The notes below the pieces were generated by a model. That model was given only the letters and a program-made list of their open reading frames with translations. It was not told the DNA's origin and ran no database searches. This document shows, piece after piece, positions 12,694 through 41,860 of a DNA stretch of 58,673 nt. The DNA comes from Clostridia bacterium (GTDB taxonomy: Bacteria > Bacillota > Clostridia > Oscillospirales > CAG-272): the NCBI GenBank assembly GCA_017399105.1, contig JAFQEJ010000018.1, positions 1 through 58,673 on the forward strand, given 5' to 3'. The first letter of the stretch is position 1, and every line of letters starts with the position of its first letter. The position numbers and the translations under genes were made by a program.

Positions 12694-13431
12694 ATGAATA
12701 CACGCCAGCAGGACATTATCAGCTTACTTGAACAGCGCGGGGAGATGACCATCAAATCGCTTGCCGAGACCTTCGGTGTCACCGAGATGACCATTCACCG
12801 CGATCTTGATTATCTGGAAAAGAAGAACTATCTATTTAAAAAGCGCGGTGCCGCTGTTTTTGTCAACAGCCATGACAGAGAAAGCCGCAGCTTTTATGCG
12901 GATGAAAAACGCAGCATCGGACAGAAGGCAGCCGAGCTGATCAAACCCGGTCAGTCAATTCTCTTCGACAACAGCACAACAGCACTTGAAACAGCGCGTT
13001 TTCTTGATGGAATCGCCGGGCTGACTTTCTATACCACCAATCTGGAAACCGCGGCAATTCTGGCAAAATACCCGAATACCATCATGTACTGCAGCGGCGG
13101 ATATTATTTTCCCGATTCCAAGGGTTTTATCGGAAAACAGACAGAGACATTTGTGGAGAGCATTCATGTGGATCTTTGTGTGATTGGTGCCAGCGGTATC
13201 GATATTGAGCACGGTATCACAGGTCCATATCCCATGCACACTGCGCTTCAGCGCAAGATTATCGATGCAGCCGATTACCGTATTCTTACAGCCGATCATT
13301 CCAAGTTCGGAAAGGCAGCCATTGAAAAGATTGCCGATCTTGACGAGATTGACTGCATTGTTACCGACAGCGGTATTCGGCCTGAGATTTCGGAGGAATA
13401 CGGAAAGCATACGCGAATCATTCTGGCGTAG
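12694..13431 (+). CDS. DeoR/GlpR-family transcriptional regulator
   Basis: N-terminal DeoR HTH (IISLLEQRGEMTIKSLAETFGVTEMTIHRDLDYLEK) and a C-terminal DeoRC sugar-phosphate sensor domain. GGAG sits 7 nt before the ATG. Confidence 0.85.
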   Translation: MNTRQQDIISLLEQRGEMTIKSLAETFGVTEMTIHRDLDYLEKKNYLFKKRGAAVFVNSHDRESRSFYADEKRSIGQKAAELIKPGQSILFDNSTTALETARFLDGIAGLTFYTTNLETAAILAKYPNTIMYCSGGYYFPDSKGFIGKQTETFVESIHVDLCVIGASGIDIEHGITGPYPMHTALQRKIIDAADYRILTADHSKFGKAAIEKIADLDEIDCIVTDSGIRPEISEEYGKHTRIILA

Positions 13432-13531
13432 GTTAAACAGTAAACAACAGCACGGGACTGTTGAAATAAAATCAATTCTTGGAAAGGATGGGTGCATCAT
13501 GAATTCCCGCTGTCATGATGCAGAGATTCAC

Positions 13532-15025
13532 ATGAAAAAATCATTGTTAAAGCCGCTTTCTTCTTTGATCTTGGCAGCGCTGATGATGCTTGGATCCTTT
13601 GCGGCATGTTCAACAGAAGATGGAGGAGCGCAGACTCCTTCGGACGACACAGCGGTCGATCAGACTGCAGCTGATACAACTGCGGCTCCCGAAGAGACCG
13701 AGCTTGTTTATGCAGCCGACATTCCCTCGGGAACCAACTATAACGGCTATAACTTCCGCGTTGCGGTTGCCGATCTGACCACCATTGTCTGGTGTGATAC
13801 CGACTTTTCGATCCTTGAGCCTTCGGCGGATATTGTAGAAAATGCCGTTTATGAACGTAAGACCAAGGTTGAAGGTCAGCTCGGTGTGGAAATCACTCCG
13901 GTTTACTATCTGGGCGACGTTGCAAATGAAATGAGCAAGAGCATTCAGGCGGATGAAAATGCTTTTGATATCGGTTTTGCACCTCCTAAATTTTCGGGTG
14001 CGAGAACGACTGAGGGCTGGTTCCTTGATCTGAATAATTTCCCCAACATCGATCTGAGCGATCCCTGGTGGGATCAGAACTCGGTGGAGGATCTTTCAAT
14101 TAAGGGAAAGCTCTTTACCGTTGCTGGTGATATCGGATATAACTATAAGCGTTCGACTTCGGTGCTTTTCTTCAACAAGAAACTCATCGAGACTAAGCAG
14201 CTGGAGAATCCCTATGATCTGGTTAACAACAATCAGTGGACACTGGATAAGCTTTTCGAGATGGCAGACAACATTTCGGAGGATCTGAACGGTGACTCTG
14301 CAATTTCTCCTGCCGACGACCTGTACGGATTTGCAAACTGTCCCGATACGCTCAATCAGATGATGGTGGGTGCCGGTGTCAATGTTACTGAGTTTGATTC
14401 GGAGGGTACACCCACACTCTGCTTCATGGATGAACGGACTACCTCTGTTTTTGAGAAGATCACCACATTTATTTACGATGATGCCAAGTCCTTTAACTGG
14501 GAGGCTGTCGGCGTCAATGCAGGTACCAAGTTTACCAATGACCAGCTTCTCTTTATGCCTACCGAATTCTGGGTTATTACAACCTATCGCGATATGGCGA
14601 CCGATTTCGGTGTGCTTCCCATGCCCAAGTATGATGCATCTCAGGAGAACTACGGACATATCGTTAACGCTCATGTCGCAGCACTGCTCATGATTCCCAG
14701 AACCAACACAGACAATAATATGACCGGTCATGTGGTTTCTGCGCTTGGTGCTGAGGGAAAGAATCTTATCACTCCCGCATATTATGAGGTTGCGCTCAAG
14801 ACCAAGATGTCCCGCGATACCGAGTCTGAGGCGATGTTTGACATTATTTTTAATTCGATCGACTGGAACGCAGGTGTAATTTACAACTGGGGCGGCTTTA
14901 TGGATACCACACGCAGCATGGTTGGTGCTAAGAATACCGATATCGCTTCTACATACGAGCGTATGGTGAAGCGAATCAACAAAGATATCGAGAAGGTACT
15001 CGAGGCATACAGCAAGCTTGGTTGA
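13532..15025 (+). CDS. Large (~497 aa) extracellular solute-binding lipoprotein (LplA-like ABC SBP family), orphan
   Basis: MKKSLLKPLSSLILAALMMLGSFAACS lipoprotein signal and an Asp/Thr/Ala-rich linker. It is the right length and composition for a family-1 large SBP. An alternative start lies at 13499. No permease or ATPase genes are nearby. Confidence 0.6.
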   Translation: MKKSLLKPLSSLILAALMMLGSFAACSTEDGGAQTPSDDTAVDQTAADTTAAPEETELVYAADIPSGTNYNGYNFRVAVADLTTIVWCDTDFSILEPSADIVENAVYERKTKVEGQLGVEITPVYYLGDVANEMSKSIQADENAFDIGFAPPKFSGARTTEGWFLDLNNFPNIDLSDPWWDQNSVEDLSIKGKLFTVAGDIGYNYKRSTSVLFFNKKLIETKQLENPYDLVNNNQWTLDKLFEMADNISEDLNGDSAISPADDLYGFANCPDTLNQMMVGAGVNVTEFDSEGTPTLCFMDERTTSVFEKITTFIYDDAKSFNWEAVGVNAGTKFTNDQLLFMPTEFWVITTYRDMATDFGVLPMPKYDASQENYGHIVNAHVAALLMIPRTNTDNNMTGHVVSALGAEGKNLITPAYYEVALKTKMSRDTESEAMFDIIFNSIDWNAGVIYNWGGFMDTTRSMVGAKNTDIASTYERMVKRINKDIEKVLEAYSKLG

Positions 15026-15026
15026 T

Positions 15027-17234
15027 ATGAAAAAACGCATCACGGCACTGATTATCGCATGTTTTCTTCTGCTGTGCTCCTGTGACAGTGGAATACAGCA
15101 GGAGACGCTCTCCGACACACTTCTGATATCCGAGGCTGAAACCGAGCTGCCGAAGCTTTCACTTGACGGCTATACGGTGGTGATCAGCGGCGATGCTTCC
15201 GAGCGCGAGAGTGAAGCGGCGAAGGCACTGTACCTGGCGCTGGGGGAGGTTTGTGAGGGAATTGCGCTCTCGGACGATTTCGACGGCAAGCAGGACAACA
15301 CCGGTCGGGCAGAAATTCTTGTGGGCGCGACCAACCGTCCTCAGTCACAGGCTGCACTGGTGGAGTGCGGTGAATTTGAGTTTATTATCCGCAGTGCGGA
15401 GAACAAGCTTGTCATCGCGGCAAAGCGTCCTGAAACTATCGAATATGCGGTGAATTATTTTCTTGAGCACTGTACTGTTCGAGGCAGCGTTGACCAATCG
15501 ATGTCAATACTGCTCTCATATACAGAGCTTGAGGGGATTGAAGCCTACGATTATAATGAGGTTTATAATATGAACTGCACCCGTCCTACCGAAGATATTG
15601 TCTATCCCAGAAGTGATCTTCAGGCATCGCTTGTCGAAACCGAAACACGCAGTGTTTCGAAATCCGACATTTATACCGGCGGCCCTCAGTTTATCGCGAA
15701 GCTTTATACAGAAGCGCTCTCCCGCTCGCCTTCCGGTGAAGAATTTGCTGATGCCACAGCACGAATCTCCGAGAAGGGTTGTACAGTGGAAACACTGACA
15801 GCTTTGGCATATGAGATTTTTGCTTCGGATGAATATAAAAATCACAATCTCACCCGGGAAGAATCCTGCTTCACCCTCTACCGTGCCATCTTCTCACGCG
15901 ATCCTTCGCTTGAAGAGTTGGAGACTTTTGGAGGAAATGCCGCAGACTCTGTGTCATCGCTTACTGCGAGTGATGAGTTTGCGGATATGATGCAGGGGAT
16001 TATCGAAGGACCGTACTTCTGGGGCATTAATCAGGAAGAGGTCTATACAGGAAGTAGCGTGATTCTCGCATCGCAGCTTCAGAAGCAGATCTCAAACTAT
16101 ACTGTGACCAAGCTGCCGCAGGGAACGCTGGTGCTTATGGATACGGTGCTGGTGCTTCCAACGGGTGCAATGCTTGTCACTGAGGGGGAACCGACACATT
16201 ATGCGAAGATGGCGCGCTTTCTGCGACCGGCAGAGAAGGGAAGCCATCACCATCTGATTCAGATGGGAGAAGAATGTGAGATCAAGTCGATTTTTATTGA
16301 CGGCAATATGTCGGCATTTGAGCTCAATGAAACTGCAAACGGAAGCAATACCGTGATTACGGGAAGCTACTGCAATGTTACATACTGCCGCGTGTCCGAT
16401 TCCACCAGCCACCAGAATGTATGGGCGTTGGACGGCACAAGCGAGATGTACATCGCACATAATCTGATCACCGGTTATGCATCCGATCACAATAAGACCT
16501 GGCAGGACGGTATTTCCTGTCTGGCAACCGGATCGGTCATCGAGTACAATGATATCGTCGATACGACAGACGGTGCGATTGCGGTGTTCCGTTATATCGA
16601 AAACTATGCGGCATACGATCATATCCGGGCGCAGAATTCGATCATTCGTTATAACAACATCTTCAATGCAGGTAATTCCGCTTATGTTGCACATGACTAC
16701 GAGACGGTGAATTATTTTAAGATTGGCAATCCTCCTGAATATCCTGCCAATATGACCGGACTTGTCAGCTATGAAAATAACATCTGGACATCCTGGAGAG
16801 CGCATTATCATATGGTGGTTACCTTCTCTACGGTACCGTGGCAGGGACCTGTGGTCAATGACCGTGCCATCGGCGGTTCCTTCTATAACAATTCCTCACC
16901 CGACGGATGCTTTGCGCTCTGTGCCTGCGGAATCAATGTGGACAAGGTTACCGATGCGGCGGTACGGGGCAACAGCTTTCTCTTCTATCTCGGTGACTGG
17001 TGCCGATCTGCGCCGGGAGTGGGAGCTCGTGCATACAGCATCAATGAGGAGAACAGCGGCGGCGACTTCCAGGCTGGCTATGTGAATATGCCGATTGCAA
17101 CAGAGACTGCGACCTTCATCAACACTCTTGCAGGAGGGCTGACGCTGGAGGCTGCCGATACGGTTGAGCTGCAGGGATGGAAGCTGACCGAGGGAAAGGT
17201 GACCATTCCTCTGGAACGCTTTCAGGCAGAATAG
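15027..17234 (+). CDS. Lipoprotein B: shared N-terminal module + DUF4214-like repeats + right-handed beta-helix + C-terminal Cys cluster
   Basis: MKKRITALIIACFLLLCSCD lipobox. The N-module aligns with A and C. Two repeats resemble DUF4214 (FIAKLYTEALSRSPSGEEF.., CFTLYRAIFSRDPSLEEL..). Beta-helix rung-like repeats follow (NLITGYASDH.., EYNDIVDTTDGAI.., IRYNNIFNAGNSAY), then CFALCACGIN...DWCRS. Its ATG at 15027 lies 1 nt after the SBP stop. Confidence 0.55.
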   Translation: MKKRITALIIACFLLLCSCDSGIQQETLSDTLLISEAETELPKLSLDGYTVVISGDASERESEAAKALYLALGEVCEGIALSDDFDGKQDNTGRAEILVGATNRPQSQAALVECGEFEFIIRSAENKLVIAAKRPETIEYAVNYFLEHCTVRGSVDQSMSILLSYTELEGIEAYDYNEVYNMNCTRPTEDIVYPRSDLQASLVETETRSVSKSDIYTGGPQFIAKLYTEALSRSPSGEEFADATARISEKGCTVETLTALAYEIFASDEYKNHNLTREESCFTLYRAIFSRDPSLEELETFGGNAADSVSSLTASDEFADMMQGIIEGPYFWGINQEEVYTGSSVILASQLQKQISNYTVTKLPQGTLVLMDTVLVLPTGAMLVTEGEPTHYAKMARFLRPAEKGSHHHLIQMGEECEIKSIFIDGNMSAFELNETANGSNTVITGSYCNVTYCRVSDSTSHQNVWALDGTSEMYIAHNLITGYASDHNKTWQDGISCLATGSVIEYNDIVDTTDGAIAVFRYIENYAAYDHIRAQNSIIRYNNIFNAGNSAYVAHDYETVNYFKIGNPPEYPANMTGLVSYENNIWTSWRAHYHMVVTFSTVPWQGPVVNDRAIGGSFYNNSSPDGCFALCACGINVDKVTDAAVRGNSFLFYLGDWCRSAPGVGARAYSINEENSGGDFQAGYVNMPIATETATFINTLAGGLTLEAADTVELQGWKLTEGKVTIPLERFQAE

Positions 17235-17252
17235 ACTAAACAATCATTCAGA

Positions 17253-17290
17253 AAGGGCTTAAAGAAAACAAACTTTAAGCCCTTATTTAT
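17253..17290 (+). terminator. Hairpin between the two paralogs
   Basis: AAGGGCTTAAAG-aaaacaaa-CTTTAAGCCCTT followed by ATTTAT. Confidence 0.6.
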
Positions 17291-17307
17291 ACGAGGTGAT
17301 TTATTCA

Positions 17308-18966
17308 ATGAAATTCTTACGTCCCACATCGGATATTGTCTACCCCAAGAGCGATATCATTTCCTCTCTTACAAAACACGAGAGCATCAGCGTTTCCAAG
17401 TCGGATATTTACACCGGCGGCCCGCAATTTATCGCCAAGCTGTATACCGAGGCGCTCTCCCGCTGTCCTACCGGTGCAGAATTTGCTGATGCAACCGCTC
17501 ACATCAAGGAACAGGGCTGCACCAAGAAAATGCTGGCGGTGCTTGCCTGCGAGATCTTCAGCTCGGATGCGTATCAGAAGGCGGCACTGACCCGCGATGA
17601 AATATGCTTTACCCTCTACCGTGCGATTCTCTCCCGTGATCCAATGGGGGAAGAGCTTGCTTCCTTCAACGGTGATGCTGTGACTGCTGTAAAGGCACTG
17701 ATTGCGGGTGCTGAGTTTGATGCATTGATGGAGGGGATTATTAAAGGTCCCTACTTCTGGCATGGAACCAACTACGAGTGCTATACGGGATCGCAGGTGA
17801 TGCTTGCTTCCGAGGTACAGAAGCTGCTGAGACCGGATACGGTCACCGCACTTCCGCAGGGGACGCTTGTGATTGTTGATGAAACGATCAATATGCCCAT
17901 CGGTGCCAAGCTGATCACTGAGGGAGAGCCGACCCATTACGCCAAGATGGCGCGTTTTCTGCGTCAGCGTGATACCGAAAAATATTATGATCTTCTCAGA
18001 CTCAGCGACAGCTGCGATATCCGCTCAATTTTCGTGGACGGCGCGCTTTCGGAATATCATGACAAGCTGATTCCTCCGACTCCTGTGATGGTGCTGGGCA
18101 ATTCAACCTCGGTGACAGACTGCCGTGTGTCCGATTCGATCAGCAGCGTGAATATTTTCATCGGTGCACAGCATGATGTTTATATTGCCCGCAATTTGAT
18201 CACCGCTTATGCTTCGGATCATGATCGAACCTGGCAGGATGGCATCCATAATAAGGCTTACGACGCGCTGATCGAATATAATGAAGTTGTAGATTCGACC
18301 GATGCGCCGATTGTGACCTTCCGTTATTTGCTGAATACACCCGATTACGATCACAAGCGGGCGCAAAATTCGATCATCCGCTTCAATAAGATTTTCAATG
18401 CGGGTAATTCTGCCTACTGTGCGCATGATTTTGAGACAGTGCATTATCTGAAGGTAGGACAGTCTGCCAAGGACGATGCTAATATGACAGGGCTTGTCAG
18501 CTATCATAATGAAATATGGTCATCCTGGCGCGCGCATTTTCACATGATTGCAACCTTCTCTACCGTGCCGTGGCAGGGCTCGGATAATAACGATATGGCA
18601 CATGGAGGTTCCTTCTACAACAATTGCACACCAGAGGGATGCTTTGCCCTCTGTGCCTGCGGAATCAATGCAGATAAGGTCCAGAATGCGGCAATTCGCG
18701 GCAACCGCTTTACCCTATATCTTGGTGATTGGTGCCGTTCCGATCCGAGATTGGGCAAAAGAGCCTACAGCGTGCACGCTGATAACTGCAGCGGTGATTT
18801 TCAGCCGGGATATAGTGATATGGCGATGTATACAGAGAAGGAGACCTTTATTATTAATCTGATTGGCGGACTGCAGCTTGAAGCTGAGGACAGCGTTTTA
18901 CTTGAGAGATGGGAGCTTTGCGAGGGCAGAGTAACCATTCCGATCGAGCGTTTTATGTCAAGATAA
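17308..18966 (+). CDS. Signal-less paralog B' of lipoprotein B (DUF4214-like + beta-helix + Cys cluster)
   Basis: About 60% identity to residues ~185-738 of B over its full length. No hydrophobic N-terminus (MKFLRPTSDIVYPKSD...). GAGGTGA sits 8 nt before the ATG at 17308. Confidence 0.55.
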   Translation: MKFLRPTSDIVYPKSDIISSLTKHESISVSKSDIYTGGPQFIAKLYTEALSRCPTGAEFADATAHIKEQGCTKKMLAVLACEIFSSDAYQKAALTRDEICFTLYRAILSRDPMGEELASFNGDAVTAVKALIAGAEFDALMEGIIKGPYFWHGTNYECYTGSQVMLASEVQKLLRPDTVTALPQGTLVIVDETINMPIGAKLITEGEPTHYAKMARFLRQRDTEKYYDLLRLSDSCDIRSIFVDGALSEYHDKLIPPTPVMVLGNSTSVTDCRVSDSISSVNIFIGAQHDVYIARNLITAYASDHDRTWQDGIHNKAYDALIEYNEVVDSTDAPIVTFRYLLNTPDYDHKRAQNSIIRFNKIFNAGNSAYCAHDFETVHYLKVGQSAKDDANMTGLVSYHNEIWSSWRAHFHMIATFSTVPWQGSDNNDMAHGGSFYNNCTPEGCFALCACGINADKVQNAAIRGNRFTLYLGDWCRSDPRLGKRAYSVHADNCSGDFQPGYSDMAMYTEKETFIINLIGGLQLEAEDSVLLERWELCEGRVTIPIERFMSR

Positions 18967-19065
18967 GGAAAATCTGACAACGTTTTTGACCGATTGGAAT
19001 TGACAAAAAGATCAAACAGCGGTATAATAATGAAAATTGAGTTCATAGTAAGGAAGGATTTGCCT

Positions 19066-20694
19066 ATGAGAAGATTTTCTGTTATACTGCTGTTTTTCTG
19101 TCTTTTGTGGGGATTGATCTCCTGCGGCGAGTCATCGTCAGATGGCACGGAAAGCGAAATACCACCTGATCATGCACAGCCGGTCGTTGAAAAGTTCTAT
19201 CAGATTGTGCGCTCGGATGATTCGAGCAAGACGCTGACAAGTGCAGCGGTGGCATTGAAAAACGCGATTCGTGATAGGGCAGGCTATGATATTGTGCTGA
19301 CCACCGACTGGGACAAAAATCCGGTTGAGGAATACGAGATTCTGATCGGTGAGACCCTTCGAGCTGAGTCGGATGTTGGTGAGCTTGATGCTTCCACCTT
19401 TGTTGTGCGTGAAGTCGGAACAAAAATCGTTATCACCGGCGGCAGTGAAAATGCTGTTATCGCAGGTATCAATTACTTTATTGAGGAGTATGTGAATAAA
19501 ATGGAGAATACAGGAAAGTTTGCACCCCCCACGGGGATCGATGTGAGCGATTCAACGCTCAACCGTCTGCTTGCTCTGAAAACAGATGGATCCTCCAAGA
19601 AGAAGGCATACAGCGATTACATCAAAACATACACCGAGAAGCAGCTTCTCAGCTTCGATGATCTGGATACAAAGAGCCTTCGTACAGCAGATGGCGTGGA
19701 GATCGACTCCACTTATATGCGCGAAGGCAGTGGTGCCATGCGCTGGACTTTGGATAAGGATTACAATGATCTTGTACAGATGATGCAGGTTTCTCGCAAT
19801 GCCTTTGAATTTGCGGTAAAGGATAAGAGAACGACTACATTGAAATTCTGGCTCTTTATCAATGATACCGATCTGATATCCTGCGACCATGATTCTCAAT
19901 ACGGAATCCAGGAGAATCAGGCAACCTTCTTCATCCGTGTGACCGACAAAAACGGACGTACTTACTGCTGGAATCATACCATCACCGATAACGGCTGGCA
20001 CGAAATTGAGCTTTCCTTCAATGTACACAACGGTGTTGATGCCGATTTTGATTATGATCACATCACCGGCTTTTGGATCATGTTCTCGGGTAAAGCTGGG
20101 GCGGTTGTAGAACTGGACGACCTGCGTGCTGTGGAATATACAACCGATTACAAGCCCGAGGCAGTTCCCGCTGAATGGCGCGTGATTACAGATGCGGAAT
20201 ATGATGCGCTTGATGGTGCGATTGTCCAGGAATGGTACGGTACATATTACGATACTGAGGATAAGGTACAGGGCAAGTCTTCGCTTTGCTGTGAAGGTGA
20301 TGCTTCGGTTAATGATTTCCGTTTGATCATTGCAAACACCAGTATCCCCCTGGATTATGATCAGGATGTGCTGGTTTTCTGGATGAAACTGGAGAAGTTT
20401 GCTTCCTGCAATGGACTCTTCCTTGAGCTGAATCATGTACAGGATCAGCATGAGTATGAGAAGTCGGTTTCTCTGGATGAACTGAAGGCATACGGTCTTG
20501 ACAAGGAAAACGAATGGTGTCAGGTTGTCATTCCGCTCACCGATTTCAAACAGAATCTGAAGCCCGATGTATACGGCAAGGGCGAGGATATTGTGATGCA
20601 GAATTTTCGCTTTGTTATGAATCCTGTTTCCGGTATGGATTATAAAGTTCATATGGATCGCGCATATTTTACCACAAAGGATGCGCTGAATTGA
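19066..20694 (+). CDS. Lipoprotein C: shared N-terminal module + two putative beta-sandwich (CBM-like) domains
   Basis: MRRFSVILLFFCLLWGLISCG lipobox; AGGAAGGA sits 7 nt before the ATG at 19066. The N-module aligns with A and B. The C-terminal half is Trp/aromatic-rich and strand-like (KFWLFINDTD..., VLVFWMKLEKF...). Confidence 0.5.
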   Translation: MRRFSVILLFFCLLWGLISCGESSSDGTESEIPPDHAQPVVEKFYQIVRSDDSSKTLTSAAVALKNAIRDRAGYDIVLTTDWDKNPVEEYEILIGETLRAESDVGELDASTFVVREVGTKIVITGGSENAVIAGINYFIEEYVNKMENTGKFAPPTGIDVSDSTLNRLLALKTDGSSKKKAYSDYIKTYTEKQLLSFDDLDTKSLRTADGVEIDSTYMREGSGAMRWTLDKDYNDLVQMMQVSRNAFEFAVKDKRTTTLKFWLFINDTDLISCDHDSQYGIQENQATFFIRVTDKNGRTYCWNHTITDNGWHEIELSFNVHNGVDADFDYDHITGFWIMFSGKAGAVVELDDLRAVEYTTDYKPEAVPAEWRVITDAEYDALDGAIVQEWYGTYYDTEDKVQGKSSLCCEGDASVNDFRLIIANTSIPLDYDQDVLVFWMKLEKFASCNGLFLELNHVQDQHEYEKSVSLDELKAYGLDKENEWCQVVIPLTDFKQNLKPDVYGKGEDIVMQNFRFVMNPVSGMDYKVHMDRAYFTTKDALN

Positions 20695-33775: not shown

Positions 33776-34342
33776 TTAAATATATCCGTTTTCCTTTTTT
33801 TGTGCTGCCTGCTTACCCTGGGTGATCGCTCTTTTCAGGGTGGTCAGATCGGGGGTGATCTCATCGGGAAGGACAAGCTCGTCGGTTTCAGCTTCCATTT
33901 CGTAGTTTTCGAGAATCAGACGGGCTGCTGTAACGCGCGACTGCATGGTGGTGTGGCAGTGGGTGGTAAACATCTGAAGCAGGGAATACCACGAGCTTCC
34001 ATGCTTGCCTGCCATGAGATAGAGCAGCTCGCGCTTTTCAAAAGCAGAAGATCTTCTGATCAGCATGATTAGCTGCTCTTCAAGCTGTCTGTCCTCGTCG
34101 CTGTCGGCAGAATCGGAAACCGTTAAATAATGCAGCGGGTCCAGCCCGAGAAGCTTGAACCATGCGGTATATTGCGTGATATCGGGGAAGGTTACGCCTC
34201 GCTCCCAGTTTTGTATGGTCTTTTTGGAGACACCGAGTCCCACTGCCATATAATGCTGGGATTTTCCGGCATCGTTTCTTGCTTTGCAGAGCAGTGCTGT
34301 AAATCGGGAAGCGTCCTGTTCTCTGCCATAGTCATCCTTCAT
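33776..34342 (-). CDS. XRE-family HTH transcriptional regulator
   Basis: HTH_3 block (SQHYMAVGLGVSKKTIQNWERG). The likely start is MKDDYG at 34342, with AAAGGAG 7 nt upstream. It lies only 54 bp upstream of pheA. Confidence 0.7.
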   Translation of the reverse strand: MKDDYGREQDASRFTALLCKARNDAGKSQHYMAVGLGVSKKTIQNWERGVTFPDITQYTAWFKLLGLDPLHYLTVSDSADSDEDRQLEEQLIMLIRRSSAFEKRELLYLMAGKHGSSWYSLLQMFTTHCHTTMQSRVTAARLILENYEMEAETDELVLPDEITPDLTTLKRAITQGKQAAQKKENGYI

Positions 34343-34639
34343 GATGTGCTCCTTTAAAAAAAGCATATTTAAAATTTGTGAATTATTATGCATAAGCTGC
34401 GGTTATGTTGAATCAAAATTCATTATGCCGCAAAAATCTGCCCGCTTTTTAAGAAAGCTGGCGAAAATTATTTCCTCACGAAGATAAAAAAGAAAGCTGC
34501 GTAACGGCAGCGGGGAGAGTGGATCGTTGTCGCTCAATCTGTTGGCATGAATAAATCAACACTAAATAGCATTATATCATACAGCGAAAAAAATGTCAAT
34601 ATTATAGCTGAAAAGATATTATCAAATTAAAGCATAAAA

Positions 34640-34799
34640 GGGACTGTCGCATTTGCATGCGACAGTCCCTTGAATATTGATTATGCCGGTCAAAAACCGT
34701 CATTTCAGGGCGTTTTACGCCCTGAAACCAATCAATATATGCCACAAAATCGGAAATTTTGTGGCGGGGCTGTTGCAAATGAAAAATTTGCAACAGCCC
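34640..34799. repeat. Array of four different perfect inverted repeats (10-14 bp stems) within 160 bp, 3' of the sigma-factor gene
   Basis: Four hairpins, all perfect and with short A/T-rich loops: GGGACTGTCGCAT-ttgc-ATGCGACAGTCCC (34640-34669); TTTCAGGGCG-tttta-CGCCCTGAAA (34704-34728); GCCACAAAAT-cggaa-ATTTTGTGGC (34741-34765); GGGCTGTTGCAAAT-gaaaa-ATTTGCAACAGCCC (34767-34799). Confidence 0.8.
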
Positions 34800-34823
34800 A
34801 AATTTTACCTATTATTTAAAATA

Positions 34824-36491
34824 TCAGTTATCGTAAACCAGAACCGCCGGAGGACAGCAGCAGTCAAGCTCGGTCAGATGCAGTCCGCGCTCATAGGCTT
34901 CACGTACGACAGCCATGACAATGCAATGGGATGAAATGCAGTAAAGTCGGAAGACAGGCTGATTTTTTAAATGCGCCGGTGGCTTCAGCGGAATACTGTC
35001 AAGGAAGCGGCTGTAGGCATAGCCCAGCACTTCGGTCAGGCTGGTGGTTGCCGCCGATATGAAGCTGTTGATTTCATTGTATTCAGTTCGCGAGAGAATG
35101 GCAATGTCAGGCTTTAATGTGCCATTATCACGCCTCAGCATGCCGAAGGTAATATATCGGTCAATTGTCTGCAGCATGCGCTCATCCAGTTCACCGTTCT
35201 CAGGTGTAACGCCGATGTGTGTGCACCAGAGCAGCTTGTGCATGTCTCTGTTGAGAAAATAGGAATCAAAGCCTGCGGCGGAAGCACGGTAGGGCGAATC
35301 ATAGAAGGGGGTATCAAATTCATAAAGATCGAGGCATTTTGTTCCTCTGTAATCAAGAAGCCGCGAACTGCGGTGACCGCCATGAATCAAATAGTTGCTG
35401 ATTTGATTATCCTTGGCTTCATCGTAAACGGCGGGATAATGGTATGCTACAGCCGACCAGCGGCCACCGTCCTTTCTTTGAGGATAGCTGTTGGGATCAT
35501 TGAAGGATTCCTGCAGCTTCGGGCAGCCGTAAAATTCAAAATCCTGCAGTGCCTTCAGTGTTGCATAACGCTCCAGCTTTATTTTTTGCAAAGGTGTCAG
35601 TGTTTGATAGGAATCCAATTTCCGTATATTGCAGAGAAGTGTGTCCATTGCTGCCCAGAAGGTGTCGAAATGCTCCTTGACAAAGCGCTTCTGCGGCTCA
35701 AAGCGACTGTACCTGTCCTCGGGATGATAAATGATAAAATCGGTATAGATACGACCGCTGTCCTGTCTCACCATTAGCTCGCCGTCAACGAGTCTATCAA
35801 TGACAGGCTCAAGATATACGGTGGGGATACCTAACACTTCTGCAATTTCGGTGGGGAGCAGAGGCTTATCGTAGGCGACAATCAGAATGTTCTGGGCAAT
35901 GAGATCGCCGTTGACAAGTGTGTTCGGTTCACCCTTCCGACCGTCAGAGCCTCCGAAGGTCATTGCCAGTTTGCCTGGGATATATTGCTTCTTATCCATA
36001 TGTTCCTGTCCTTTCGTCAGTCTGTTCCTGAGCTGCCCCCGTCCTGCAGACAGTCTGCTTTTAACCGTTCCCTCGGGAATGCGGAGTGTTTTTGCAATCT
36101 CGGCGACGCTCTCACCTGCGAAATAGTGACGCAGCAGTACCTCGCGGCTCAGCTTTGCCAGATAAAGCAGTTCACGGCGAAGTTCTGCAGCTTCGTCGGA
36201 TTCGCAGACTGTATCAAAAACCTGATCGTCCTCATAAACATCGCCAATGGCATCCATGTTCAGAATCGGCGGCTGTCGGTATAATCTGCGAAGCCGGTCA
36301 TTTGCCTTGTGCATCAGCGTATTTGCCAGCCATGTCCGCGGATACTCAATTTCGTCTCCATGTTTGAGACAGGCAAGTGCTGCCAGCATGGTATCCGAGA
36401 CCAGGTCTTCCGCATCCTGCCGATTCTTTGATTTGGTGAGGGCGAGGGCAAAGAGATCGTCAAAGTAGGTCAGCAGCTCGGTTTTGTTCAT
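34824..36491 (-). CDS. ECF-like sigma-70 family sigma factor fused to a ~380-aa C-terminal domain of unknown function (555 aa, no TM segment)
   Basis: N-terminal ~170 aa has sigma region 2 and region 4 features (LRHYFAGESVAEIAKTLRIPEGTVKSRLSAGR). The long hydrophilic C-terminal extension contains a second HTH-like stretch. GAGGT sits 7 nt before the ATG at 36491. Confidence 0.7.
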   Translation of the reverse strand: MNKTELLTYFDDLFALALTKSKNRQDAEDLVSDTMLAALACLKHGDEIEYPRTWLANTLMHKANDRLRRLYRQPPILNMDAIGDVYEDDQVFDTVCESDEAAELRRELLYLAKLSREVLLRHYFAGESVAEIAKTLRIPEGTVKSRLSAGRGQLRNRLTKGQEHMDKKQYIPGKLAMTFGGSDGRKGEPNTLVNGDLIAQNILIVAYDKPLLPTEIAEVLGIPTVYLEPVIDRLVDGELMVRQDSGRIYTDFIIYHPEDRYSRFEPQKRFVKEHFDTFWAAMDTLLCNIRKLDSYQTLTPLQKIKLERYATLKALQDFEFYGCPKLQESFNDPNSYPQRKDGGRWSAVAYHYPAVYDEAKDNQISNYLIHGGHRSSRLLDYRGTKCLDLYEFDTPFYDSPYRASAAGFDSYFLNRDMHKLLWCTHIGVTPENGELDERMLQTIDRYITFGMLRRDNGTLKPDIAILSRTEYNEINSFISAATTSLTEVLGYAYSRFLDSIPLKPPAHLKNQPVFRLYCISSHCIVMAVVREAYERGLHLTELDCCCPPAVLVYDN

Positions 36492-36582: not shown

Positions 36583-36630
36583 AAATGAAGAAATGAAGAA
36601 ATGAAGAAATGAAGAAATGAAGAAATGAAG
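36583..36630. repeat. Octanucleotide simple-sequence repeat (AAATGAAG)x6, perfect
   Basis: Six tandem identical 8-mers lie between the terminator hairpin of the upstream gene and the TATATAAT -10-like element of the sigma-factor gene. Confidence 0.9.
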
Positions 36631-41799: not shown

Positions 41800-41860
41800 T
41801 TGACAAGTGTCTGCGATTGTGGTATAGTGAAGATACCACCGTAGACACTTGTCTTTGTTT
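41800..41860 (+). promoter_or_regulatory. Promoter TTGACA-17-TATAGT of the blaI/blaR1-like operon 1, bracketed by an 11-bp inverted repeat (GACAAGTGTCT ... AGACACTTGTC); candidate BlaI-type operators
   Basis: gtgTTGACAAGTGTCTgcgattgtggTATAGTgaagataccaccgtAGACACTTGTCttt. One half-site overlaps the -35 and one lies downstream of the -10. An inner TGGTA-9-TACCA dyad overlaps the -10. Confidence 0.45.

Follow-up and report, generated by a model that had tools for sequence, protein, structure and literature searches.

Four perfect stem-loops, which occupy 162 nt on the sense strand from 24 to 186 nt past the stop codon of a sigma factor gene, can with reasonable probability be read as a compound ('cluster') intrinsic (Rho-independent) terminator and insulator carried by the 3' UTR of that gene. 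They lie in a contig of an uncultured gut Clostridia bacterium, JAFQEJ010000018.1 (GCA_017399105.1), of which positions 1-58,673 (58.7 kb) were analysed and are called the window below. The closest relative that we found (GCA_053312775.1, hereafter L004) carries only one hairpin in the corresponding place, and the strain variants of the window differ from one another within the array.

Organisation of the locus

The sigma factor encoded upstream of the array carries a long C-terminal extension and matches the Pfam families Sigma70_r2, r4_2 and r4. Downstream, the XRE gene opens an operon continuing with pheA, aroB, aroC, aroE/K, aroQ, aroA, tyrA and a DAHP synthase gene. The two genes are separated by 481 bp, and the 3' UTR of the sigma gene bears the hairpins in the order HP4-HP3-HP2-HP1. 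On the RNA, the succession is: sigma stop codon, 24 nt, HP4, 1 nt, HP3, 13 nt, HP2, 31 nt, HP1, promoter, XRE gene. The position of the array speaks for a terminator, since the hairpins begin 24 nt past the sigma stop codon and the genes on either side are both encoded by the minus strand. All features are listed in Table 1.

Table 1 Features of the sigma-XRE intergenic spacer and of the two flanking genes (positions in the window)
Feature	Position	Strand	Description
Sigma-70-family (ECF-like) sigma factor gene	34824..36491	-	555 aa, ORF
HP4 stem-loop	34767-34799	-	14-bp perfect stem, 5-nt loop, -22 kcal/mol
HP3 stem-loop	34741-34765	-	10-11-bp perfect stem, 5-nt loop, -12 kcal/mol, moderately T-rich tail
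HP2 stem-loop	34703-34727	-	11-bp perfect stem, 3-nt loop, -16.7 kcal/mol
HP2 including outer helix	34674..34738	-	9-bp outer helix, 34674-34682 pairing with 34730-34738
HP1 stem-loop	34638-34671	-	15-bp perfect stem, 4-nt loop, -27.4 kcal/mol
HP1 terminator including tail	34622..34671	-	stem-loop followed by TTATGCTTTAATTT
Sigma-70 promoter	34571..34599	-	TTGACA-17 nt-TATAAT, 12/12 consensus, extended -10 TG
Leader	34343..34564	-	about 220 nt, conserved block TGAGCGACAACGA
XRE/HTH_3 regulator gene	33776..34342	-	188 aa, opens the aromatic amino-acid operon

Two further elements were observed upstream of the sigma gene. An ECF-type motif, GAACC-N12-CGACGAC (36555-36532, minus strand), precedes the ATG of the sigma gene and is also conserved in L004. 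The presence of this conserved motif before the start of the gene suggests that the sigma factor activates its own transcription, potentially strongly. Between the stop codon of a DUF6054 gene and the sigma start, an 8-nt perfect tandem repeat (CTTCATTT on the minus strand) extends over positions 36583-36630 and adjoins the putative sigma promoter on its upstream side. The window has 6 copies of it, L096 has 4, L095 and L102 have 3 each and L004 has none. The Logan contigs L003 and L102 both begin within this repeat.

Anatomy of the four hairpins

The original prediction had reported four perfect inverted repeats after the sigma stop codon, and all of them are present. Their coordinates held to within one or two bases: HP1 had been given as 13 bp at 34640-34669 and HP2 as 10 bp at 34704-34728 (one base off), in place of the values of Table 1. 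The folding energies of the individual stems range from -12 to -27 kcal/mol and add up to about -78 kcal/mol. The palindromes of the array are GGGRCTGWCGCATGCAAATGCG; GGGCTGTTGCAAAT; TTTCAGGGCGT-N3-ACGCCCTGAAA; and GCCACAAAAT-N5-ATTTTGTGGC. Read on the plus strand, the loops of HP1 to HP4 are TTGC, TTT, CGGAA and GAAAA, so that their description as A/T-rich applies only in part; their lengths are 3 to 5 nt. The core CATTTGCA/TGCAAATG that had been noticed in two of the stems is indeed common to HP1 and HP4, with a spacing between the shared half-sites differing by about 5 bp. Taken alone, the similarity between the arms of HP1 and HP4 is marginal (9 matches out of 11, p about 0.05).

HP1 was the top match in a generic terminator scan and has the form of a canonical ('L-shaped') intrinsic terminator. 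Its loop reads GCAA, a GNRA loop, on the minus strand only. HP2 is followed at 5 nt by a run of five T and was found terminator-like on the minus strand in the same scan. HP3, located 1 nt from HP4, forms with it a 'V-shaped' pair. HP4 itself is devoid of a U-tail on the sense strand ('I-shaped').

To compare the strands, T-tail scores were calculated for each hairpin in both orientations. The scores were 2.63 on the minus strand vs 0.47 on the plus strand for HP1, 1.16 vs 0.16 for HP2, 1.24 vs 0.14 for HP3, and 0.01 vs 0.72 for HP4. The sense strand is thus favoured by three of the four hairpins, HP1, HP2 and HP3 having the higher score on the minus strand. A U-tract is clear after HP1, weak after HP2 and HP3, and lacking after HP4. 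Judged by these tails, HP4, HP3 and HP2 would each be a poor terminator if taken singly, which weighs against the terminator reading. This strand asymmetry, together with the GNRA loop that HP1 displays on the minus strand only, argues for termination of the sigma transcript.

Rarity of the cluster

Perfect hairpins with a stem of 9 bp or more number about 10 in the window, four of them in the array, whereas its shuffled versions yielded about 1.1 per 58.7 kb. A survey of 736 kb, comprising the window and assorted bacterial loci, gave 63 perfect hairpins with stems of 10 bp or more, and the array was the sole place in these 736 kb where more than two such hairpins fell within 200 bp. The stack of perfect palindromes had been singled out as unusual from the outset, and this survey bears it out. 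After correction for GC content, no other stretch of the window reaches as low a folding energy as the 160 nt at 34641-34800 (z of -8.6 and -8.3 for the two strands), the next unrelated region having a z of -4.25. When a 231-nt region was folded, we obtained -102 kcal/mol, corresponding to z = -13 against dinucleotide shuffles. A chance origin of the cluster is excluded. An assembly artefact is ruled out as well, because three independent assemblies (L001, L002 and, for part of it, L003) contain the array with identical sequence; near-identical variants occur in four further contigs.

The second-best folding outlier of the window lies elsewhere, at 41800-41855 on the plus strand. It is a long imperfect dyad, GACAAGTGTCTGCG...CGTAGACACTTGTC, and probably a BlaI-type operator; it covers a TTGACA...TATAGT promoter and precedes a Penicillinase_R/BlaR1-like gene pair.

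Promoter and leader of the XRE-aro operon

About 22 nt past the U-tract of HP1 lies a sigma-70 promoter matching the consensus at all 12 positions (Table 1), which is the predicted promoter of the XRE-aro operon. It is conserved in L004 and in another relative, L087. The location of so strong a promoter directly downstream of the hairpins, and its conservation in these two relatives, argue for a role of the array as terminator and insulator.

The 300 bp between the array and the XRE gene (34343-34640), which had been regarded as unannotated, hold this conserved promoter and a leader with an attenuator-like hairpin. This small GC hairpin, GCTGC-cgttac-GCAGC, is located at 34496-34511 and is followed by a T-run at 34486-34495. 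Both the conserved block of the leader and the hairpin are found in three lineages, and the leader, which matches no Rfam family, could be an attenuator for the XRE-aro operon. We rejected a Phe-rich leader peptide (TTG ORF, 34537-34403): in L087 the frame closes after 5 codons, and the Phe codons mirror the T-run. An invertible promoter was rejected as well, none of the flanking inverted repeats being convincing.

Comparison with relatives

Apart from a handful of near-identical strains, the collections contain only one orthologous locus that is informative for covariation, L004. In L004 the gene order is unchanged, the sigma protein is 81% and the XRE protein 82% identical to those of the window, and the spacer is 296 bp long vs 481 bp in the window. 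This shorter spacer contains one terminator hairpin, AAAAAGGTGCAT-GAAG-ATGCATCTTTTT, directly before the conserved promoter and leader. The hairpin is orthologous to HP1: it occupies the same position, has the same type of apex (GCAT-GNAR-ATGC) and a similar 5' flank (ATATT.C..AA.GG). HP2, HP3 and HP4 are specific to the lineage of the window. Because the single hairpin of L004 corresponds to HP1 in apex, flank and position, HP1 is best taken as the ancestral terminator and the three other hairpins as lineage-specific additions. Since L004 manages with one hairpin, three of the four would be dispensable for the basic function, a point against the terminator reading of the whole array.

Behind the gene for a more distant sigma homologue, L005 (51% identity), come a single perfect hairpin of 16 bp, a promoter and an HTH_3 gene, in this order. 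The layout of sigma gene, one hairpin, promoter and HTH gene, kept in both L004 and L005, is consistent with a terminator. A third relative, represented by the contigs L087 to L093, has an XRE protein 80% identical to that of the window and retains the promoter and leader. Six of these seven contigs, which come from separate samples, share their first base, which lies about 50 nt ahead of the -35 box. A scan of genome contigs with the sigma alignment recovered only distant ECF sigma genes (25-36% identity), the scan patterns having fallen into the N-terminal part common to ECF factors in general.

Upstream of the sigma gene of L004 (positions 78-212), we observed that the DUF6054 gene is cut to a 44-aa ORF with its terminator hairpin retained. 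The shortening apparently arose by internal deletion.

Strain variants

The strain variants are 98.5-99% identical to the window. In L095, HP4, HP3 and HP2 are present with one SNP in a loop, and the contig ends between HP2 and HP1; the loop of HP3 is the site of a SNP among the variants. L102 has a C>T change in the 5' arm of HP4. L101 has a C>T change in the stem of HP3, and its HP1 has a C>T change and an A.A mismatch; it still folds as four hairpins. Each of the three stem transitions turns a base pair into G.U in the RNA of the minus strand, and into A.C in that of the plus strand. These wobble changes (3 out of 3, p = 1/8) lend weak support to selection acting on the sense-strand RNA. 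That they suit the minus-strand RNA, and that L101 keeps four hairpins, is in line with the terminator reading.

At the position of HP4, L101 carries a hairpin resembling HP1, AAGGGGCTGACGCAT-GCAA-ATGCGACAGCCC, which we call HP1'. It is 89% identical to HP1, including the 5' flank of HP1, AATATYCAAGGG, and its outer stem GGGCTG/CAGCCC is that of HP4. Since L101 provides this intermediate, HP4 and HP1 are probably paralogous, HP4 being a diverged copy of HP1. The four palindromes had been described as unrelated, which in the light of L101 does not hold for this pair.

L101 (ENA ERZ28654447 scaffold_119530) is homologous to the window from ACAGCCC onwards, these being the outer 7 nt of the 3' arm of HP4. 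Conversely, L096 diverges from the window straight after GGGCTGT, the outer 7 nt of the 5' arm of HP4. Upstream of the array, L101 encodes in its positions 1-300 an unknown gene instead of the sigma gene, with the C-terminus ...NWVSQIAKWMPSAQILLDDALATLKELP. This gene had no Pfam match, and its only similarity, a weak one, was to an SBP-like ORF of the window (13184-15025). As a different gene stands upstream of the array, L101 implies a putative rearrangement with its breakpoint at HP4. We consider it unlikely that L101, a single 1.4-kb contig, is an assembler chimera, since the sequence that it has in common with the window at the junction is only about 7 nt long. Of the nine recovered contigs that are strain variants or short, eight begin or end within the 480-nt spacer, L101 being the only one to cross it. 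About 6 differences from the window were counted in about 180 nt of the L101 array vs 17 in 1121 nt overall. From strain to strain, the hairpin region changes no more slowly than the genes on either side, so that selection on it is weak, which counts against the terminator reading.

Separately, four consecutive ORFs (613, 738, 556 and 566 aa) at 13184-20694 on the plus strand of the window had no significant Pfam match. The 613-aa ORF had a sub-threshold match to SBP_bac_1 only, and the group adjoins a gene for a GxGYxYP-domain protein.

Alternative explanations

The features of the array could also be those of mobile or recombinogenic palindromes of low copy number (REP/BIME-, MITE- or att-like) that accumulated in a permissive spacer, termination being a by-product. 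We regard this as unlikely, even though several observations agree with it: the array is lineage-specific, L004 having one hairpin; HP1 and HP4 are related through the intermediate HP1', whose flank AATATYCAAGGG is shared; L101 and L096 both break at the outer 7 nt of the HP4 arms; and eight of the nine variant or short contigs break inside the spacer. Against it, the stems had no copy elsewhere in the 58.7-kb window (allowing up to 1-2 mismatches) or in about 680 kb of other loci (up to 4 edits). Exact patterns of all four hairpins had no match in viral contigs, nor had those of HP1 and HP4, the only two searched there, in JGI metagenome contigs. The junction sequences of L101 and L096 did not match viral contigs, the fragment of the upstream gene of L101 yielded nothing among viral sequences, and a blastn search of the region against plasmids and phages gave no match. 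The dispersed REP family by which the original prediction would have been refuted was absent from all these sequences. The larger ORFs of the window contain no transposase, RAYT or integrase domain. Terminal inverted repeats and target-site duplications were absent, the only such feature being a 9-bp inverted repeat around HP2 that does not qualify as a MITE, and the stems lack a GTAG-type REP head. Only HP1, HP4 and HP1' are related to one another; HP2 and HP3 resemble nothing else that was searched. A narrower version, in which HP4 and HP1 alone form a low-copy palindrome family serving as a recombination or insertion target (REP/BIME- or att-like), seems doubtful to us, and so does its corollary, namely that the hairpins would make the array a hot spot for rearrangement of the genome and not just a terminator. 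To our knowledge, no such recombination-target palindromes have been described in this uncultured Clostridia lineage.

Of the three functions offered by the original prediction, the multi-terminator insulator fits best, and protein-binding dyads and a structured RNA found no support. Operators bound by regulators, such as the XRE protein or a sigma-factor partner, would be well placed at about 75 to 235 nt in front of a strong promoter whose operon is led by an HTH gene. The four sequences are nevertheless different and not recognisable by one dimeric regulator, the half-sites shared by HP1 and HP4 are out of register by about 5 bp, and stems of 10-15 bp closed by loops of 3-5 nt have the geometry of terminators and not that of operators. 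In addition, L004 keeps the XRE gene (82%) and the promoter without three of the dyads, the fourth being different in sequence. Operators are therefore very improbable. We judge an independent structured small RNA, on either strand, to be just as remote. The extreme predicted structure (z = -13) is found on both strands, a weak promoter-like site exists on the plus strand at 34593-34622, and sub-threshold Rfam matches to nrdJ RNA (32.8 bits vs a cut-off of 40.3) and psRNA14 were obtained on that strand. No Rfam 15 family reached its gathering score anywhere in the window, however, and the two weak matches were discarded, being antisense to the sigma transcript with alignments that cover generic hairpins. 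The region is not conserved even in L004, the plus strand offers no good pair of promoter and terminator to frame an RNA, and it is the minus strand, whose RNA here is simply the sigma 3' UTR, that the wobble changes favour.

Proposed mode of action and origin

As a compound terminator, the array would act as RNA transcribed from the minus strand. HP4, HP3 and HP2 would fold first in the nascent RNA and may slow or destabilise the RNA polymerase, and HP1, the presumed ancestral canonical terminator (15-bp stem, GNRA loop, U-tract), would then end the sigma transcript. The extra hairpins could catch read-through, providing back-up termination, and could shield the 3' end of the sigma mRNA from exonucleases. 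As a net effect, transcription of the sigma gene would be kept out of the promoter located about 22 nt downstream and of its separately controlled leader. We infer both the termination at these hairpins and the insulating role from the arrangement and the sequence of the locus. As to the origin of HP4, the hairpin HP1' of L101 points to a duplication of HP1 followed by palindrome-preserving remodelling, the passage from HP1' to HP4 altering both arms together.

If correct, this would be a natural example of a single terminator growing into a multi-hairpin insulator by duplication, remodelling and accretion, situated between a self-activated sigma gene and a promoter of consensus strength. Synthetic biology could use it as a part, and the 'cluster hairpin' model of termination could be tested on it. 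The case also shows that perfect palindromes in spacers of this kind vary by strain and break metagenome assemblies, which is relevant to the reading of the ends of MAG contigs.

Comparison with known systems

Double terminators employed as insulators, such as rrnB T1-T2, are stacked so that strong transcription of one unit does not continue into a promoter located behind it. Unlike rrnB T1-T2, made of two canonical terminators, the array has one canonical terminator out of four. Correction of quasipalindromes by template switching is a mutational mechanism and not a functional class. It would account for the perfect stems and for the change of both arms of HP4 relative to the HP1' of L101.

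The REPs and BIMEs of Enterobacteria and Pseudomonas are imperfect palindromes with a family consensus, present in dozens to hundreds of copies and linked to RAYT transposases. Clusters of REPs at the 3' ends of genes may stabilise the mRNA or terminate transcription, vary by strain, and are hot spots of recombination and insertion. REPs have been described as targets of insertion sequences (PMC1525189). The array is likewise an extragenic, strain-variable cluster of palindromes at the 3' end of a gene, but its palindromes are different from one another, perfect, and unique in everything searched.

The closest parallels are tandem terminators. The WebGeSTer classification defines 'U-shaped' and 'V-shaped' terminators as tandem hairpins less than 50 nt apart, the next hairpin starting immediately in the V-shaped class (PMC3013805). 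Gupta and Pal (2021) apply to their 'clusters of hairpins' a stricter spacing limit of less than 15 nt (PMC8355165). All gaps of the array are below the 50-nt limit of the former; the 15-nt limit of the latter unites HP4, HP3 and HP2 in one cluster and leaves HP1 outside it. Like tandem terminators, the array combines a place shortly after a stop codon, short gaps (1, 13 and 31 nt), hairpins with and without a U-trail and a canonical last hairpin. It differs in having four perfect stems of 10-15 bp, in being found in one lineage and in varying between strains, whereas the catalogued tandem or cluster terminators mostly comprise two hairpins, often weak, with stems of 4-10 bp (PMC3013805, PMC8355165). 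The array is thus most likely an extreme, strain-variable case of a known class of signal, and not a new class of system.
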